NCBI RefSeq assembly: GCF_000015025.1
Contig: NC_008578.1
Location: 810,001-842,000, forward strand
Direction: 5' to 3'
DNA: 32,000 nt
DNA from: Acidothermus cellulolyticus 11B
GTDB taxonomy: Bacteria; Actinomycetota; Actinomycetes; Acidothermales; Acidothermaceae
The notes beneath the pieces are model-generated. The model searched no databases and was not told the DNA's origin. It was given only the letters and a program-made list of their open reading frames with translations. Shown here piece after piece: positions 2,359 to 14,229 of the stretch; the stretch's first letter is position 1, and each line of letters begins with the position of its first letter. The translations under genes and the position numbers were made by a program.

Positions 2359-3634
<1,276 letters not shown>

Positions 3635-3642
<8 letters not shown>

Positions 3643-3710
3643 TCCGCTTAGCTGGCGTGGCCGGTACGGTTTAGCCGGCGTGGCGCGTTAGCCGGTTTAG
3701 CCGGTGCGGC
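3635..3710. repeat. Cluster of short TTAG-containing direct repeats in the convergent clpX/3730(-) intergenic region
   Basis: ccgcttag occurs twice (3635-3642, 3644-3651). TTAGC[T/C]GG occurs at 3648, 3671, 3688 and 3697. The longer units ttagctggcgtggc (3648-3661), ttagccggcgtggc (3671-3684) and ttagccggtgcggc (3697-3710) are near-identical. Confidence 0.6.
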
Positions 3711-3729
3711 GCTGCCCGGCCGCCGTGCC

Positions 3730-5049
3730 TCACTGCTCGACCTGGTGGCGGATCGTGCTTGCCGTGGCGATGTTCGCGGTCGTGTTCGTGCCGTAGACGG
3801 TGACGATGACGACGGCGCCGCGGTCGACGGCGATGCACTCCGTCCCGGCTTTGCCGCCGCGGAGTGCGCCGCACCACCACTGACCGGTTGCCGGGTCGCC
3901 CGAGGAGAGTTGTCGAAGTGTCGCGGCTTGCCCCTGGGCGGCGAGCGTCTTGTTGATGACCGTGACCAACCGGATTTGGTCATCGGTGGTCTTCACCGAT
4001 GCGGTGGACGGTATGGCACCGGCAATGACGACCGCCCGAGGTCCCGTGCCGTACACCGCGAATCCCGCCGCGGACAGCGCGGGCGATGCGGTGCGGAGCT
4101 TTGCGACCTGGGCCCGCACTGGGTCGACGAGCGCCGTGTCGGTAACCCGAGGTGCACTGCCCAGCTTGACCGGGAAGCTGATCGTCGCCGGTGTTGCCGT
4201 CGAACCGTGGTGCAGCACGTATTTCGGCACGAGGTAGTAGCCGCCGGCGGCCAGGACGACGACCGCCGCTGCAATGAGCGCGCCGAGGCGGCGCCGTTTT
4301 GCCGGCGCAATGGATTGGCCGGGCTGTTCCGGCGGGTTGGCCTCGGCGGTAACGGTTGGTGCATCGGCCGGTGGCACAGCGGCGTACGACGGCGGCGCCG
4401 AAGCGGCGGTGTAACCGGCAGGCGCGGCCGCGTAACCGGTAGGCGGCGCGTACCCGGCCGATGCGGCGGCGTACCCGCCCGGCGCCGCAGCGTACCCGGG
4501 GCTGGACGGCGATCCCGGGGTCACGTACCCAGGCACGGCGCCGGGTGCCTGGGGGACCGGACCGGGTGTCGGATATCCCGGGGTGGCGGCGGGTGTGGTC
4601 CCGGGGGGAGAGTATCCGGCGGGTGTGGTCCCGGGGGCTGGATATCCGGCGTAGCCGGCGGGTGTGTACCCCTGGGCGTAACCGGCGGGACCGTATCCGG
4701 GTTGCGTGGACGGGTAAGCCGGCGGCGCGGCGTACGCGGGTGGCGCGGACTGGTAGTCCTGCGCGCTGATCGGGACGCCGCCGCCGGGCGTCGCACCGCC
4801 GACGGGTGCAGCGCCGGGTGCCGTCGGCGCCGGAGTCGGCGCAGTGCCAGGGGGAACCGAGCCGGGAACCGAGGCCGGGGTTGGTCCGCCGGGAGGTGTC
4901 GGCGGGACGGCGGCCGCTGGGGCGGCCTGTGACGCGTCGTCAGTCACCTTGCCGCGGCCGCGCTGGTCCTTGCGGGTTCGGCCGCGGCCGGGCAACACCG
5001 TGATCGCGTAAGGAGACTGAAACGTGTCGTCGAGATGCTTGTCCTTCAT
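3730..5049 (-). CDS. Membrane-anchored protein: Pro/Tyr/Gly/Ala-rich disordered N-terminal region, one TM helix, Cys-pair C-terminal domain (function unknown)
   Basis: ATG at 5049-5047 (MKDKHLDD..) is preceded by GAGGA. The ORF-track start at 5280 would overlap valS. About 260 aa of PAGY/PGY-type repeats are followed by RRRLGALIAAAVVVLAAGGYYLV (TM). A C-terminal domain of about 150 aa follows, with ordinary composition and two Cys (WWCG..TECI). Confidence 0.6.
   Translation of the reverse strand: MKDKHLDDTFQSPYAITVLPGRGRTRKDQRGRGKVTDDASQAAPAAAVPPTPPGGPTPASVPGSVPPGTAPTPAPTAPGAAPVGGATPGGGVPISAQDYQSAPPAYAAPPAYPSTQPGYGPAGYAQGYTPAGYAGYPAPGTTPAGYSPPGTTPAATPGYPTPGPVPQAPGAVPGYVTPGSPSSPGYAAAPGGYAAASAGYAPPTGYAAAPAGYTAASAPPSYAAVPPADAPTVTAEANPPEQPGQSIAPAKRRRLGALIAAAVVVLAAGGYYLVPKYVLHHGSTATPATISFPVKLGSAPRVTDTALVDPVRAQVAKLRTASPALSAAGFAVYGTGPRAVVIAGAIPSTASVKTTDDQIRLVTVINKTLAAQGQAATLRQLSSGDPATGQWWCGALRGGKAGTECIAVDRGAVVIVTVYGTNTTANIATASTIRHQVEQ
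4591..4650. repeat. 30-bp tandem duplication inside the Pro-rich CDS
   Basis: gggtgtggtcccggggggagagtatccggc (4591-4620) and gggtgtggtcccgggggctggatatccggc (4621-4650). On the minus strand these encode AGYPAPGTTP and AGYSPPGTTP. Confidence 0.85.
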
Positions 5050-5202
5050 CACGGTCCTCGATTCGTGCCATTTGCCCGTTGAGGTCCTCGGCCGGTTCCG
5101 CGTCGGCCTTGACTCGACCGACACCTTCCGGCGGCCACGAACCGCATGGATCTCCATTCGCCGGGTGCGGGATCGATCGACCGTGCTGGCTAGACTCAAC
5201 GC

Positions 5203-7869
<2,667 letters not shown>

Positions 7870-7872
7870 CCG

Positions 7873-9210
7873 ATGGCCGGCGCCGCGGATCTCGCGCGGG
7901 TGGAGAAGGAGCTCCTGGCGCGATGGCCGGAATCCCGTATCGAGTGGAAACTCGAGCGGATGACTGCGCTCATGGAGCTGCTTGGCGACCCGCAGCTCGC
8001 CTATCCGTCCATTCACATTGCCGGCACCAACGGCAAGACGTCGACCGCGCGCATCATTGACGCCCTGCTCCGTGCCCTCAATCTGCGCACCGGGTGTTAC
8101 ACCAGCCCGCACCTCGAATCCATCACCGAACGGATCCTCCTTGACGGTGAGCCGATTTCTGATGAGGTGTTCGTGGCCACCTACGACGAACTGACGCCCT
8201 ACTTCGAGCTCGTCGATGCGCGGTTCCCCACCCGCCTCTCGTTCTTTGAGGCCGTCACCGGCATGGCGTTCGCCGCTTTCGCCGCCGCACCGGTCGACGT
8301 GGCCGTCGTCGAAGTCGGCATGGGCGGCCGGCTCGACGCGACGAACATCATCCATGCGCCGGTCGCTGTCATCACTCCGATCGACCTCGACCATCAAGCG
8401 CATCTGGGGTCCACAATTGCCGCGATCGCCGGTGAGAAAGCCGGAATCATCAAATCGGATCAGACCGTGGTGGTTGCCGCCCAACACGATGCCGCCGCCC
8501 AGGTGCTGCGTCGTCGCGCCGAGGAGGTTGGGGCGCGTCTGGTGACCGAAGGCGTGGATTTCGCTGTCACGGAACGAAAACCCGCAGTCGGCGGCCAGCT
8601 CGTCACCATCCGCGGCGTGCGCGGTGAATATCCCGAGCTGTTCCTCCCGTTGCACGGTGCACATCAGGCGGGCAATGCCGCTGTCTCGCTTGCGGCCGTC
8701 GAGACATTCCTCAGCCCGGAGCATGCGCTTGACATCGACCTGCTGCGGGACGCGTTCGCCGGCGTCCGGTCACCCGGGCGGTTGGAAATCGTCCGTACGA
8801 AGCCCACCGTCCTCGTCGACGCCAGCCACAATCCCGCCGGCGCCCGCGTGACGGCTGCGACGCTGGCCAGTGAATTCGCGTTCGAGCGACTCATCGGTGT
8901 GATCGGCACCCTGGCCGACAAGGACGTCCCGGGAATTCTCACCGCATTCGCACCAGTGCTCAGTGAGGTCATCGTCACCCGGAGCAGCTCGCATCGGGCG
9001 ATCGACCCCGTCGATCTCGCAACGCAGGCCGAGGCCGTGTTCGGGCCGGAGAAGGTGACCCTCGTCCCGCGGCTGGATGAGGCATTGCAGGTCGCGCTGC
9101 GCCGGGCGGCCGAGGCTGACGCGGGCGGATTGGGCAGCGGCGTCGGTGTTCTCGTGACGGGTTCCGTGGTGACCGCCGGTGAGGCCCGGCGGCTGTTGCG
9201 ACAGCGATGA
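7873..9210 (+). CDS. folC: Bifunctional folylpolyglutamate synthase / dihydrofolate synthase
   Basis: Mur-ligase P-loop GTNGKTST, YTSPHL and HNPAGA. It lies 3 nt after the valS stop, the conserved valS-folC pairing. Confidence 0.93.
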   Translation: MAGAADLARVEKELLARWPESRIEWKLERMTALMELLGDPQLAYPSIHIAGTNGKTSTARIIDALLRALNLRTGCYTSPHLESITERILLDGEPISDEVFVATYDELTPYFELVDARFPTRLSFFEAVTGMAFAAFAAAPVDVAVVEVGMGGRLDATNIIHAPVAVITPIDLDHQAHLGSTIAAIAGEKAGIIKSDQTVVVAAQHDAAAQVLRRRAEEVGARLVTEGVDFAVTERKPAVGGQLVTIRGVRGEYPELFLPLHGAHQAGNAAVSLAAVETFLSPEHALDIDLLRDAFAGVRSPGRLEIVRTKPTVLVDASHNPAGARVTAATLASEFAFERLIGVIGTLADKDVPGILTAFAPVLSEVIVTRSSSHRAIDPVDLATQAEAVFGPEKVTLVPRLDEALQVALRRAAEADAGGLGSGVGVLVTGSVVTAGEARRLLRQR

Positions 9211-9626
9211 CAACCGCCATGACGTCCCCCGGCGCCGGCGAGGGTGCCGAGGTCGAGCGCGCCCGCCTCCGGGCGCGCCGGGACGCGCGCCGGCTGGCCG
9301 CGAGCGTGCTCGGGACGGAAGTGATCGTCTTCTGGCTGGGCATCATCGCCGCCGTCACGCTGTCCGGGGTGTCCCGCCCGGTCGCGATTGCGGTGGGCGC
9401 GGCCTTGGCCCTTGGCTGCGTCCTCGCAGCGATGCTGCTCCGCACCCGCGCCGGGTACGTGCTCGGCAGCGTGCTCCAACTGCTGGCGATCGCGTGCGGC
9501 GTCGTCGTCCCGGTGATGTTCATCCTCGGCGTGATCTTCGCGGGGTTGTGGGTAGCGGCGTGGCGGCTCGGCGTGAAGGCGATCCGATCAGCTGATCAAG
9601 CGGGGAGAAGCTCGGGCACGTCGTGA
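9207..9626 (+). CDS. Small integral membrane protein, DUF4233-like
   Basis: ATGA overlap with the folC stop (9207-9210). It has 3-4 hydrophobic helices (EVIVFWLGIIAAVTL.., VAIAVGAALALGCVLAAML, VLQLLAIACGVVVPVMFILGVIFAGLWV). A membrane protein of this type follows folC in many actinobacteria; that point is from memory. Confidence 0.75.
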   Translation: MTTAMTSPGAGEGAEVERARLRARRDARRLAASVLGTEVIVFWLGIIAAVTLSGVSRPVAIAVGAALALGCVLAAMLLRTRAGYVLGSVLQLLAIACGVVVPVMFILGVIFAGLWVAAWRLGVKAIRSADQAGRSSGTS

Positions 9627-9651
9627 CGATCGTGCGGTACGGTCAGAGGGA

Positions 9652-10650
9652 ATGTCCACCGAAACCGCCTCCGCACTCGATGAGCGCTCGGTCGCGCCGC
9701 GGTCCCGGGCAGCCGACGACGCCGGCCAGGTCCCGTTGATCCATGCGCGGGGCCTGCTCAAGCGTTACGGCACGTTCGTCGCCGTCGACCACATCGACCT
9801 CGACGTGTACGCCGGCCAGGCTTTCGGCTTTCTCGGCCCGAACGGAGCGGGGAAATCCTCCACTATGCGCATGATCGGATGCGTCTCGGAGCCGTCCGGC
9901 GGCACGTTGCGCATCTTCGGCCTGGACCCACGGCGCGACGGTCCGGTGATCCGGGGTCGGATCGGGGTCGTGCCGCAACAAGACACCCTCGACCTCGAGC
10001 TCACCGTCCGCGAGAACCTCATCGTGTACGGGCGGTACTTCGGCCTTCCCCGGGCCTGGCTGCGCCGTCGCGCAGACGAATTGCTCGACTTCGTCCAGCT
10101 CGCCGACCGTGCCGACGACAAGGTGGAGCCCCTCTCCGGCGGCATGCGCCGACGCCTCACCATCGCGCGGGCACTGATCAACGAGCCGGAGCTGCTGCTG
10201 CTCGACGAGCCGACCACCGGTCTTGATCCGCAGGCCCGGCACGCGGTCTGGGATCGCCTCTTCCGCCTCAAACAGCACGGCGTCACCCTCGTCCTCACCA
10301 CCCACTACATGGACGAAGCCGAGCAGCTCTGCGACGAGCTGGTCGTCATGGACAAGGGTTCGATCGTTGCGCGCGGCTCCCCGCGGGACCTCATCACCCG
10401 GTTCGCCACCAAGGACGTCGTTGAGCTGCGGTTTCCGGTCGGTCGCAACGAGGAGATGGCCGGCCGGGTCGCTGACCTTGGTGACCGGGTTGACGTCCTG
10501 CCCGACCGGCTCGTCATTTACACCGAGGACGGCGACGGCTGTCTTGCGGCGGTGCACGCCCGTGGTCTCGAACCGCTCTCCGCTTGGTTGCGCCGCGCCA
10601 CGCTGGAAGACGTCTTCCTCCGGCTCACCGGCCATGCGCTGATCGATTGA
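9652..10650 (+). CDS. ABC transporter ATP-binding protein (ABC-2 / NodI-DrrA-like exporter ATPase)
   Basis: Walker A GPNGAGKSST, Q-loop VVPQQD, signature LSGGMRRR, Walker B LLLLDEPTTGLD, H-loop TTHYMDE. The C-terminal regulatory extension ends ..ATLEDVFLRLTG. Confidence 0.93.
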   Translation: MSTETASALDERSVAPRSRAADDAGQVPLIHARGLLKRYGTFVAVDHIDLDVYAGQAFGFLGPNGAGKSSTMRMIGCVSEPSGGTLRIFGLDPRRDGPVIRGRIGVVPQQDTLDLELTVRENLIVYGRYFGLPRAWLRRRADELLDFVQLADRADDKVEPLSGGMRRRLTIARALINEPELLLLDEPTTGLDPQARHAVWDRLFRLKQHGVTLVLTTHYMDEAEQLCDELVVMDKGSIVARGSPRDLITRFATKDVVELRFPVGRNEEMAGRVADLGDRVDVLPDRLVIYTEDGDGCLAAVHARGLEPLSAWLRRATLEDVFLRLTGHALID

Positions 10651-10672
10651 GCACCGGCCACCGGACGCAACG

Positions 10673-10792
10673 AGCAATGGAGCAGCCCATGCACATAGCA
10701 ATGCAGCAGCCCATGCACATAGCAATTCAGCGACCCATGCACGTAGCAATGCAGCAGCCCATGCAACAAGCAATGCAGCGACCCATTCCGCG
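10673..10792. repeat. Tandem repeat, 5 x 24 bp (consensus agcaatgcagcagcccatgcacat), in the ATPase-permease intercistronic gap
   Basis: Units at 10673, 10697, 10721, 10745 and 10769 were read directly. They are head-to-tail with no spacers, and divergence increases toward the 3' end. Confidence 0.95.
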
Positions 10793-10858
10793 ACGATCCC
10801 TCAACCGGGAGCGCCAAGCCCCGGCAGCCTCTTGGCGCCACCCGCCGGCGGAGGGTGC

Positions 10859-11695
10859 ATGAGCGGCATGGCGGCGGCGGCCGAACCGCTTGGTACCGCC
10901 CGTGGGAACCTGCCCGCGGCGATGCGGCGCACCTGGCGGGCGTACCGGTACTGGGTGACGAGTTACCGGCGGACCTGGCGCGGTTCGGTGGTGTCGAGCA
11001 TCGTCAATCCGGTGCTGTACCTGGCGGCGCTGGGGGTTGGGCTCGGCACTCTGGTGCACGCCGGGCCCGCGACCCATGGGCTGAGCTACCTGCAGTTCAT
11101 CGCCCCTGGATTGCTCGCCGCCACCGCGATGCAGGTGGCCTCCATCGAAGCGACCTATCCGGTGCTCGCGTCGGTCAAATGGGTGCCGATGTACGACGCC
11201 ATGCTCGCGACACCGCTCACGGTCGGGGACGTCTTCGCCGGCCACCTGCTGTGGATGCTCACTCGGATCGGGCTGACCAGCAGCACGTACCTGGCGGTGA
11301 TCGCCGCATTCGGCGGGGTGCGCAGTGGGCTCGCTGTTTGTGCAGTGCCGATCTGTCTTCTGCTCGGCCTGGCGTGCGCGGCCCCGATTGCCGCGTTCGC
11401 CGTCAGGCAAGAGACCGACACGTCTTTCTCCGCCTTGCAGCGTTTCGTGATCGTGCCGATGTTCCTCTTCTCCGGCACGTTCTTCAGCATTGATCAGCTT
11501 CCGTCGTGGATTCGTCCCGTTGCGTACGTGACCCCGCTCTGGCACGGTGTCACCCTTACCCGCGATGTCACGAGCGGTGTCGTGGAGCCCGGCGGCGTCG
11601 CCCTCATCGGCGTCCACCTCGTCTTTCTCACCGCGCTCGCGGGAATCGGCACCCGTATCGCCGCCCGCAATTACCGGCGACGGTTGGAGCGTTGA
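10859..11695 (+). CDS. ABC-2 type transporter permease (first of two)
   Basis: ATG 10859 is preceded by GGAGGG (10850-10855). The ORF-track start is TTG 10832. Six predicted TM segments; the length and ..FVIVPMFLFSGTFFSIDQLPSWIRPVAYVTPLWHG.. are typical of ABC-2 permeases. Confidence 0.85.
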   Translation: MSGMAAAAEPLGTARGNLPAAMRRTWRAYRYWVTSYRRTWRGSVVSSIVNPVLYLAALGVGLGTLVHAGPATHGLSYLQFIAPGLLAATAMQVASIEATYPVLASVKWVPMYDAMLATPLTVGDVFAGHLLWMLTRIGLTSSTYLAVIAAFGGVRSGLAVCAVPICLLLGLACAAPIAAFAVRQETDTSFSALQRFVIVPMFLFSGTFFSIDQLPSWIRPVAYVTPLWHGVTLTRDVTSGVVEPGGVALIGVHLVFLTALAGIGTRIAARNYRRRLER

Positions 11696-12508
11696 GTGAT
11701 GTCCTTCGCGTTGCGCATCCTTCCGTACGGCGCCTTCGGCCGGTTCACCGGACGCCGCAGTGTTGCCCTTGTTGAGCGGAGTCTGATGGTCTACCGCCAC
11801 ACGTGGATCATCATTGTCTCCGGTTTCTTCGAACCGCTGTTCTACTTGTTGTCGATCGGCGTCGGCGTCGGCCGCTTGGTCCCGCACCTGTCGTACGCCG
11901 GCCACCCGATTGCATACACCGCATTCGTCGCACCCGCGATGCTCGCGTCCTCCGCGATGAATGGCGCGATTTACGACTCCACCTTCAACATCTTCCACAA
12001 ATTGAAGTACGCGAGGGTTTACGAGGGCGTGCTTGCGACGCCGATGACCGCCCTCGACGTCGCCGCCGGCGAAATTCTCTGGGCCCTGGGCCGCGGGTTC
12101 ATCTACGCCGTCGCGTTTCTCATCGTCTGCGCCGCGATGGGCGTGGTGCATGCGTGGACGGCGGCGCTTGCTCTGCCTTTTGCGGTTCTTGAAGGCTTGG
12201 CGTTCGCCGCGTGCGGCATGGCGGCCACGACGTTCATGCGCAGCTGGCAGGACTTCGAATGGGTCAATCTGGTGCTGCTGCCGATGTTCTTGTTCTCCGC
12301 CACCTTCTACCCGCTCACCGCTTACCCGACCGCCGTCGCCCATGTCGTCCGCTGGACACCGCTGTACCAGGCGGTGGACGTGCAACGGGCCCTGCTCCTC
12401 GGCGGTTGGCATGCCGGCCTGCTCGCCAACTGCGCCTACCTCGCGGTCATGAGCCTGGCCGGCGGTATCGTCGCCGTTCGGCGGCTCGCACGGGTCCTGC
12501 TACACTGA
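11696..12508 (+). CDS. ABC-2 type transporter permease (second of two)
   Basis: GTG 11696 (or ATG 11699) directly abuts the stop of the previous permease (TGA 11693-11695). It is paralogous to that permease (..LVLLPMFLFSATFYPLTAYPTAVAHVVRWTPLYQAV..). Confidence 0.85.
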   Translation: MMSFALRILPYGAFGRFTGRRSVALVERSLMVYRHTWIIIVSGFFEPLFYLLSIGVGVGRLVPHLSYAGHPIAYTAFVAPAMLASSAMNGAIYDSTFNIFHKLKYARVYEGVLATPMTALDVAAGEILWALGRGFIYAVAFLIVCAAMGVVHAWTAALALPFAVLEGLAFAACGMAATTFMRSWQDFEWVNLVLLPMFLFSATFYPLTAYPTAVAHVVRWTPLYQAVDVQRALLLGGWHAGLLANCAYLAVMSLAGGIVAVRRLARVLLH

Positions 12509-12535
12509 TCATCCGCTCGTCGGACGAACTCGGGA

Positions 12536-12967
12536 GTGACGGTGGCGGACGTCGAACACACCTTGCTGCTCATCAAACCGGACGCCGTCCGGCGTGGTCT
12601 GGTCGGGGAAATTCTCAGCCGGGTCGAGCGGAAAGGGCTGCGGATTCGCGCCTTGGAGCTCCGCACGATCGATGACGACCTCGCCCGGCGCCACTACGCC
12701 GAGCATGCCGCCAAGCCGTTCTTCGCCGACCTGGTGGCCTTCATCACCTCCGGCCCGCTGGTCGCGGCGGTCATCGAGGGCCCACGGGCGGTGGAGACCC
12801 TCCGGACCCTGATGGGATCAACCGACCCGGTAGCGGCTCCGCCTGGAACGATCCGCGGTGACTTCGGCCTCCTGGTGACCGAGAATCTCGTGCACGGCTC
12901 GGACTCCGTCACGTCCGCCGCCCGAGAGATCGCGTTGTTCTTTCCGCACTTCGCGGCAGACGCCTGA
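12536..12967 (+). CDS. ndk: Nucleoside-diphosphate kinase
   Basis: Motifs [30 protein letters not shown] and NLVHGSDS (active-site His). Start is GTG 12536 or GTG 12542; the latter is better spaced from GGGAG. Confidence 0.95.
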
Positions 12968-13197
12968 GCTCGACACGGCGATCACCTGGCCCAGACGGCA
13001 TCCCGCGGGTGGTGTGCCGCACGAAGCCGTCAGACGGCCGCGGCTTTTGCCCGAGGGCAGACGGAACCCGTAGCATGGCTGCGCCGTCCTTGTTTTCGGT
13101 GTCGATCGGGTCTTGAGGCCCGGTGGGTGCCGAACCGCTGTTCCCGGCGGCGGTGGACGGCGGCACGTGTCCGATGCTCAACGAAAGGCGAGCCTCC

Positions 13198-14229
13198 ATG
13201 CCCACTTCGATTTTCGGCCGCGACATGGCGGTCGACCTCGGCACGGCGAACACCCTGGTCTATGTCCGCGGCCGAGGCATTGTGCTCAACGAACCGTCTG
13301 TGGTCGCCATCAACACCAACACCGGGGGGATCCTGGCCGTCGGCATTGAGGCGAAGCGCATGATTGGCCGGACGCCCGGCAACATCGTCGCGGTTCGGCC
13401 GCTCAAGGACGGCGTCATCGCGGACTTCGACACCACCGAGCGGATGCTCCGGTACTTCATTCAGAAGGTGCACCGCAACCGGCATCTTGCCCGCGGACCG
13501 CGGCTCGTCGTCTGCGTCCCCAGCGGGTGCACGGCTGTCGAGCAGCGTGCCGTCAAGGACGCCGGCTATGCGGCAGGCGCGCGGCGGGTGTACATCATCG
13601 AAGAGCCGATGGCGGCGGCGATCGGCGCCGGGCTTCCGGTGCATGAACCGACCGGGAACATGGTGGTCGACATTGGCGGCGGCACGACGGAAGTCGCAGT
13701 GATCAGTCTTGGCGGCATCGTGACCAGCCAGTCGATCCGGGTCGGTGGCGACGAGCTGGACAACGCGATCATCAACTACGTCAAGAAGGAATATTCGCTC
13801 ATGCTCGGTGAGCGGACGGCGGAAGAAATCAAGATGGCGATCGGCTCGGCCTTCCCGGTGCCGGACGAACCGCACGCCGAGATTCGGGGCCGCGATTTGG
13901 TGAGCGGTCTGCCGAAGACGATCGTCGTCAGCGCCGCGGAGATTCGCAAAGCCATCGACGAGCCGGTGAACGCCATCATTGACGCGGTGAAGGTGACCCT
14001 CGACAAGTGCCCGCCGGAACTCGCCGGCGACATCATGGATCGAGGCATCGTCCTCACCGGCGGCGGCGCCCTGCTGAAGGGCCTCGACGAGCGGCTCCGC
14101 CACGAGACCGGCATGCCGATTCACATCACCGAACGGCCCCTCGACTCGGTCGCTCTGGGCGCCGGGAAGTGCGTCGAGGACTTCGACACGTTGCAGCCGG
14201 TGCTGATCTCCGAACCCCGCAGCCGCTAG
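13198..14229 (+). CDS. mreB: Rod shape-determining actin homologue MreB
   Basis: Motifs [36 protein letters not shown] and [14 protein letters not shown] 13198 gives the typical 343 aa. The ORF-track start at 13123 adds an atypical N-terminal extension. Confidence 0.93.

Follow-up and report, generated by a model that had tools for sequence, protein, structure and literature searches.

A 24-nt tandem repeat between the ATPase and permease genes of an Acidothermus cellulolyticus exporter operon is probably a neutral, lineage-specific minisatellite

Generic bacterial intergenic minisatellites, the variable-number tandem repeats (VNTRs) used for strain typing by multiple-locus VNTR analysis (MLVA), consist of units of some tens of bases that lie head to tail, are partly diverged from each other, differ in number between strains by whole units, and are neutral. 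We analyzed a window of 32,000 nt from the 2.44-Mb genome of A. cellulolyticus 11B (NC_008578.1, positions 810,001 to 842,000), in which an array of five 24-nt units (10673-10792) occupies the spacer between the ATPase gene and the first permease gene of a NodIJ/DrrAB-like ABC (ATP-binding cassette) exporter operon. The array resembles the typed loci in all of these respects, including its probable neutrality: the unit lies head to tail within the range of about 10-100 bp, and its copy number differs by whole units among strains, which makes it a true VNTR, probably a neutral or nearly neutral one that is specific to this lineage. It differs from the typed loci in coming from the uncultured-population context of a thermophilic actinobacterium, with a single locus examined, and no VNTR scheme for A. 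cellulolyticus was found in the literature.

The mycobacterial interspersed repetitive unit (MIRU) is a further system to which the locus can be compared. Like the present array, MIRUs lie in intercistronic operon spacers of an actinobacterium and are polymorphic in copy number. The small open reading frame (ORF) of the MIRU is coupled to the downstream start at -4, an arrangement proposed to preserve downstream translation (PMC12548453), and the same overlap (ATGA) between the stop of a small ORF and the permease start was found in all four alleles of our locus. However, MIRU units are 46-101 bp long and 41 MIRU loci are present in Mycobacterium tuberculosis H37Rv (PMC3914561), whereas the unit here is 24 nt (48 nt at the higher order) and the array was seen at one locus in the 32-kb window and the JGI contigs searched. 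The array also looks like a local duplication of the spacer, and not like an inserted mobile unit. Supply et al. are said to have described in 1997 a MIRU ORF that runs over the upstream stop codon as well, whereas the ORF here starts 26 nt past the upstream stop and has no such overlap. The array is thus not a MIRU, being set apart by unit length and upstream overlap, and no dispersal was detected in the window and the JGI contigs. An earlier sequence-only reading of the locus had offered a MIRU-like polymorphic minisatellite as one of two possibilities; the polymorphic intercistronic VNTR with an ORF running over the downstream start has stood, but the identity with MIRU and the upstream overlap have not.

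Tandem Repeats Finder (TRF) reported 10673-10786 with a period of 24, 4.8 copies, 85% matches and a score of 163, and direct reading, a pattern search and the alleles placed the five units at 10673, 10697, 10721, 10745 and 10769, the last of which is degenerate; no strand was assigned to the array. TRF further detected a 48-nt higher-order period (2.5 copies, score 182) along with a weak sub-period of 12 nt, and an ATGCA core recurs every 12 nt. The array is composed of 32% A, 33% C, 23% G and 12% T, and its G+C content is 0.575-0.583 compared with about 0.65-0.72 in the flanks. Every unit contains two ATGs with a spacing of 12 nt and lacks a stop in the frame read from ATG 10677, which we call frame 0. 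This frame forms a small ORF on the + strand of 61 codons plus TGA (10677-10862; from ORF reading, the alleles and codon scoring), and its stop TGA 10860-10862 overlaps the permease ATG 10859-10861, which is preceded by a conserved Shine-Dalgarno (SD) sequence, GGAGGG at 10850-10855. All eight ATGs of the gap fall in frame 0, and no SD was found by direct reading before ATG 10677 or any array ATG. The gap between the ATPase stop (TGA 10648-10650) and the permease ATG is 208 nt. The five units at these positions, the gap length, the 61-aa frame, the overlap with an SD-preceded start, the missing SD before ATG 10677 and the lower local G+C had all been described by the sequence-only reading, and all were confirmed, the units by TRF as well as by direct reading.

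Copy number was surveyed in environmental assemblies of the same species (Logan, JGI, ENA), on contigs whose permease and ATPase variants have an identity of 90% or more, and four alleles were visible. Allele A, with five units and a gap of 208 nt, is that of the genome, of seven Logan contigs (L001-L003, L092-L095) and of a JGI contig (L114); in the ENA contig L004 the allele A array is combined with a C-type tail. Allele B (L120, L121) also has five units and a 208-nt gap but is substituted at 7 sites of the array and 6 of the tail (13/212 in all). Allele C has two units, equal to units 4 and 5, and a gap of 136 nt in seven loci from Logan, JGI and ENA (L124-L126, L128, L129 and L140, plus L134-L136, which re-sample three of them). 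Allele D has one unit and a gap of 112 nt and was complete in contig L130. The copy number in natural populations was therefore 5, 2 or 1, and the steps were always whole 24-nt units. On either side of the array, the spacer could be divided by direct reading into a unique 5' part of 22 nt (10651-10672, + strand; the period-48 row of TRF begins at 10667) and a non-repeated tail of 66 nt (10793-10858, + strand, delimited with the help of the alleles). The 5' part, whose end GACGCAACG resembles the unit end ATGCAACA, is identical in alleles A, B and C and has one substitution in D, while the tail, which holds the permease SD, has 8 segregating sites among the four alleles.

The short alleles are not easily put down to assembly. 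The junction sequences of C and D are not present in the five-unit alleles and the units of allele A share at most 22 nt, so, judging from these sequences, collapse by a k-mer assembler cannot explain C and D. L004, with five units, and L140, with two, are from the sister assemblies ERZ27279669 and ERZ27279670 and do not differ in their tails; a change of copy number therefore took place within a single haplotype background. Unit-specific features are common to alleles A and B (...GCACGT in unit 3, ...GCAACA in unit 4), thus the five-unit structure is older than the A/B split, and alleles C and D would most simply be contractions. Units 3 and 5 have C at their homologous positions 10734 and 10782 in allele A and T at both in allele B, a parallel state that hints at gene conversion inside the array. 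Nine more contigs (L091, L122, L123, L127, L131, L132, L137, L138, L139) break inside or beside the gap, as is expected where mixed alleles disrupt assembly, and the VNTR explains such short-read assembly breaks at the locus in A. cellulolyticus. With four alleles visible, the locus is usable as a strain marker for A. cellulolyticus populations in hot-spring and compost metagenomes.

Strain differences around the locus were strongly clustered. Compared with L004, L114 and L120 they fall into 9000-9730 and 10790-12450, and tracts of 2-6% divergence alternate with identical tracts of about 1 kb, which suggests a recombination mosaic in natural populations. The identity of the array in L004 and L114 is uninformative on constraint, the array lying within an approximately 1-kb near-identical tract of this mosaic alignment. 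The rate of change was measured with alleles A and B, whose gaps differ at 13 of 208 sites (0.0625, or 6.3%), and the flanking genes have pS = 0.059 and pN = 0.008; the divergence of the gap matches the flanking synonymous rate, and the gap drifts at the neutral rate. Within the frame-0 ORF, 2.5 synonymous and 10.5 nonsynonymous differences were counted, giving a pN/pS of 1.18, compared with 17:46 nonsynonymous to synonymous in the flanks (0.13). With the ORF rounded to 10:3, the Fisher test gave p = 0.001. The substitutions were distributed over frame-0 codon positions 1, 2 and 3 as 7/2/4, which is not periodic (p = 0.23), and residue changes between alleles included I to R, A to T and, twice, P to S. 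The frame-0 ORF is without peptide-level constraint.

These counts bear on the other possibility that the sequence-only reading had raised, namely that frame 0 encodes a Met/His/Gln/Pro-rich micropeptide, co-expressed with the exporter, which would bind Cu, Ni or Zn, serve as the exporter substrate or its precursor, or act as a regulatory leader peptide. Met/His-rich octapeptide repeats are a feature of periplasmic copper-resistance proteins of the CopA/PcoA type, and the present peptide shares with them an eight-residue periodicity with Met and His. The octapeptide MQQPMHIA reads cleanly, the ORF is open in all alleles, and within the consensus unit frame 0 has the highest G+C content at third codon positions (GC3; 6/8). 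The lead in GC3, which had been claimed for frame 0 among the three forward frames, holds only within that unit, however, and over the whole 183 nt frame +1 is higher (0.74 versus 0.67). The Met and His positions are not conserved between alleles: the peptide of allele A begins MEQPMHIAMQQPMHIA..., allele C keeps one copy of the motif (MQQPMQQA), and the 29-aa peptide of allele D, MQRSIPRRSLNRERQTPAASRRHLPAEGA, has lost the Met/His repeat. Unlike CopA/PcoA-type proteins, the peptide has no multicopper-oxidase or Cop domain and no homology to them, and direct reading of its 61 aa found no hydrophobic segment, no basic n-region and no signal segment that could serve for export. The codon-usage log-odds of the ORF was -0.34, whereas the lowest in-frame 61-codon window of the eight real genes of the window scored 0.11, and ATA occurs twice in the ORF compared with 0 of 3035 gene codons.

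Searches for relatives of the peptide gave the same picture. The ORF product was searched against Pfam, NCBIfam and, exhaustively by phmmer, 1.84 billion representatives; there was no Pfam or NCBIfam match, and the 20 phmmer matches were all unrelated low-complexity octapeptide-repeat proteins, with no copy of the ORF among them. No gene caller predicted the ORF on about 30 contigs, and neither the sister lineage nor the approximately 80 homologous operons listed below have it. A metal-binding or otherwise functional micropeptide was rejected on its pN/pS of 1.18 with 7 of 13 substitutions at codon position 1, its codon usage outside the gene range, the loss of the motif in the short alleles and the lack of homologues, and we regard this reading as scarcely credible; the array peptide is unrelated to the Met/His copper-binding repeat proteins. 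The result is one more bacterial intergenic VNTR, of little import for biology at large, and the metal-peptide reading can be dropped.

The array was also considered as a cis-regulatory element, in which the 24-nt units, or 12-nt units containing ATGCA, would bind a DNA or RNA regulator or would form a regulatory RNA, an internal promoter or an attenuator. The regular spacing, the recurring ATGCA core and the position directly 5' of a gene start would fit such a role, but the units vary from 1 to 5 copies among strains and drift at the synonymous rate, and a 12- or 24-nt spacing would not hold sites on one face of the DNA helix. The RNA fold of 10640-10880 was no more stable than that of shuffled sequences (z = +1.16), and Rfam gave no match even at E <= 5 besides a chance s2m match inside the permease gene, by which a structured RNA or riboswitch was ruled out. 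The tail hairpin GCGCCAAG/CTTGGCGC is disrupted in allele B with no compensating change. A scan of 9000-13200 for promoter-like and terminator-like sites found none except a terminator-like hairpin at 13075; no site lies in the gap, and an internal promoter or terminator there was rejected. We consider a regulatory role of the array very improbable.

Dispersal was examined next to these searches, since finding the same 24-mer at many unrelated sites would have marked a generic repeat element. The consensus 24-mer with up to 3 mismatches was found nowhere outside the array within the window (0 expected from 100 shuffles), no such array was present elsewhere in 84 related loci, and viral contigs gave one chance match. 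A degenerate 21-mer pattern run against JGI metagenome contigs found the array in one contig only, the orthologous L114; 22 other JGI contigs had single pattern matches, close to the number estimated for chance, and mostly had unrelated G+C content. Within the sequences searched, a dispersed repeat element was rejected on these results.

The array is unique to the A. cellulolyticus lineage. The comparison set comprised, among the matches listed, 80 loci of other genomes whose ATPases are 65-77% identical, and these are distant relatives only. In about 75 of the 80 homologous operons listed no gap separates the ATPase gene from the permease gene, the two overlapping or abutting. In nearly all of the listed loci the earliest permease start that could be used lies on or next to the ATPase stop, and the conserved permease core mostly begins 0-95 nt past that stop, compared with 286 nt here. 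The exceptions among the listed loci, neither of which has such a repeat, are L037, with an unrelated 345-nt spacer, and L006, with a permease extension. The nearest syntenic relative is the lineage of L085-L090 (folC-DUF4233-ABC-ndk), whose ATPase, permease 1 and folC product are 81%, 68% and 74% identical. Its gap is 35 nt, with GGAGGAAAG (SD) before a GTG start and no repeat, and the array is lineage-specific because this nearest relative lacks it. The last unit and the tail can be aligned with the 35-nt gap (GACCCAT...GACGAaTCCTC...GGAGG), a homology that is suggestive and too short for significance.

In the minisatellite reading that we favor, the spacer would have arisen in the A. cellulolyticus lineage, where slipped-strand mispairing or unequal recombination presumably produced head-to-tail copies of a 24-nt spacer segment, and a 48-nt higher-order duplication step would have come later. 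The array would then expand and contract by whole units in natural populations, in an order of expansion and contraction that we infer, and the array and the remaining spacer would drift neutrally, with no sequence-specific peptide, RNA-structure or protein-binding role. The permease would be translated from its own conserved SD and ATG, and the frame-0 ORF would be a by-product of the unit sequence.

Some of the results weigh against this reading. The one-unit allele D rests on a single complete contig (L130). All four alleles keep the frame-0 ORF unbroken (61, 61, 37 and 29 codons in A, B, C and D), with the eight ATGs in one frame and always an ATGA end, which an accident need not give. In the minisatellite reading copy number would have no effect on expression, and yet it may in fact have some effect on permease translation.

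The intact ORF and its ATGA end are among the grounds for a reading that would give the VNTR a function without contradicting its identity, in which frame 0 is translated and the act of translation matters but the product does not. Ribosomes that end the ATPase at UGA 10648-10650, or that bind the unstructured array, rich in A, C and AUG, would start at any of the eight AUGs, translate across the G+C-rich tail and stop at the UGA overlapping the permease AUG (AUGA), by which coupling broken by the spacer insertion would be restored, and copy number might tune the ATPase:permease stoichiometry. The ORF resembles ribosome-delivering short upstream ORFs in being short, in having its stop within an AUGA where a longer gene begins and in not being conserved in sequence, and a review describes such ORFs together with the MIRU ORFs coupled at -4 (PMC12548453). 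The array, with its 32% A, 33% C and 12% T, has little predicted structure, and coupling seems to matter in this family, where the ATPase and permease genes overlap or abut almost always.

However, the ORF as read from the sequence has no SD before any of its ATGs, whereas the downstream gene has a strong and conserved SD of its own, and in both respects it differs from ribosome-delivering ORFs. The first ATG lies 26 nt past the ATPase stop, and the sole usable start that frame 0 offers upstream of 10677 is a TTG within the ATPase gene. Coupling efficiency is reported to fall with spacings under 20 nt (PMC12548453), which was counted against a relay. Pairing of the permease SD with a CCCUC upstream of it is predicted for every allele, but sequestration of the SD by this anti-SD was rejected, since 15% of dinucleotide shuffles of the upstream sequence were as good or better and other genes gave similar values. 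The open frame and the ATGA could well arise by chance: the probability that the 15 observed substitutions leave the ORF open is about 0.59, and the last A of ATGA belongs to the second codon of the permease. Nor does the copy-number comparison help. It had been proposed to ask whether copy number varies in multiples of 24 with the frame kept open, and 5, 2 and 1 units with the frame open in all four alleles were indeed found; this cannot discriminate translation, because a 24-nt unit preserves every frame automatically when copies are gained or lost. A relay function of frame 0 is therefore possible but unlikely in our judgment, and that the minisatellite doubles as a relay tunable by copy number, with two in-frame AUGs added per unit, seems if anything a little more doubtful. 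If it were true, 1, 2 or 5 units would adjust the ATPase:permease ratio in thermophile populations, and a MIRU-like solution would have arisen independently outside mycobacteria. The 1, 2 or 5 units on near-identical backgrounds offer a natural test case for the effect of spacer length, or of a relay ORF, on translational coupling.

The other frames of the gap were considered as a coding remnant or extension, either a low-complexity N-terminal extension in frame 2 (SNAAAHAH...) of a permease that would formerly have begun at the ATPase stop, or an opposite-strand Cys/His-rich ORF at 10518-10841. Frame 2, the permease frame, is open from 10643 into the permease, and in L006 the permease does have an N-terminal extension of about 100 aa, rich in Pro, Ala and Gly, from the ATPase stop. 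But frame 2 of our locus has no ATG, GTG or TTG before TTG 10832, which is lost in B, C and D, its GC3 is 2/8 per unit, its synonymous and nonsynonymous differences (sd:nd) are 1:12, and no database permease covers it (maximum query coverage 79%). The N-terminal extension was ruled out on the missing start codon, the unconserved TTG 10832, the low GC3 and the lack of permease coverage. On the opposite strand, which had been described as open and reading as a Cys/His-rich repeat, one frame is indeed open and reads HGLLHCYVHG, and this minus-strand frame has 8 synonymous and 5 nonsynonymous differences (uncorrected p = 0.011). The p value fails six-frame correction, however, the stop-containing frame +1 has a similar synonymous excess, periodicity is not significant, there is no Pfam match, and the codon score of -0.24 is below all gene windows; the ORF was rejected on these grounds. 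A coding remnant of either kind is thus very hard to credit.

The extended permease of L006 deserves a separate description. At L006:4948-5260, in the uncultured Actinomycetota MFD03066.bin.c.1, the in-frame N-terminal extension of about 100 aa is rich in Pro, Ala, Gly and Ser and starts at an ATG overlapping the ATPase stop; therefore the ATPase-permease junction tolerates low-complexity insertions in other lineages too.

The host operon has the architecture of a NodIJ/DrrAB-type ABC-2 exporter, with the Pfam domains ABC_tran, NodI_C and ABC2_membrane, in the gene order valS, folC, DUF4233, ATPase, permease, permease, ndk, mreB, mreC. The NodI/DrrA-like ATP-binding protein of 332 aa (9652-10650, + strand; Pfam ABC_tran) exactly matches ABK52517/WP_011719580, and the first NodJ/DrrB-like permease of 278 aa (10859-11695, + strand) exactly matches ABK52518; by this exact-sequence look-up both are identical to proteins of A. 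cellulolyticus 11B. The start of permease 1 at ATG 10859 is backed by its SD, by all gene calls and by the loss of the alternative TTG 10832 in B, C and D. The second NodJ/DrrB-like permease lies at 11696-12508 on the + strand, where gene callers begin at 11699 (269 aa). NCBIfam NodI, DrrA and NodJ were the best models and yet scored below their equivalog cut-offs, and because of this no substrate was assigned to the transporter. The operon sits within 9207-12967 between the DUF4233 gene and ndk, and the sister lineage L085-L090 has the same insertion.

Further repeats were noticed elsewhere in the window. A second intergenic tandem repeat at 3648-3712 (period 26, 2.6 copies, TTAGCCGGCGTGGCGCGGTACCGGT) lies directly 3' of a clpX-like gene (2359-3642) and is unrelated in sequence to the 24-mer. 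A minus-strand ORF at 3730-5280 has no Pfam match; its product combines a low-complexity region rich in Pro, Gly, Tyr and Ala (PGYAAAPGGYAAASAGY...) with a C-terminal domain and a predicted membrane helix. The repeat region of this ORF, in which TRF found periods of 21 and 30 at 4403-4651, is hypervariable: the window and L114 differ at 135 places, and about 90 of these, indels included, fall within 4395-4800.

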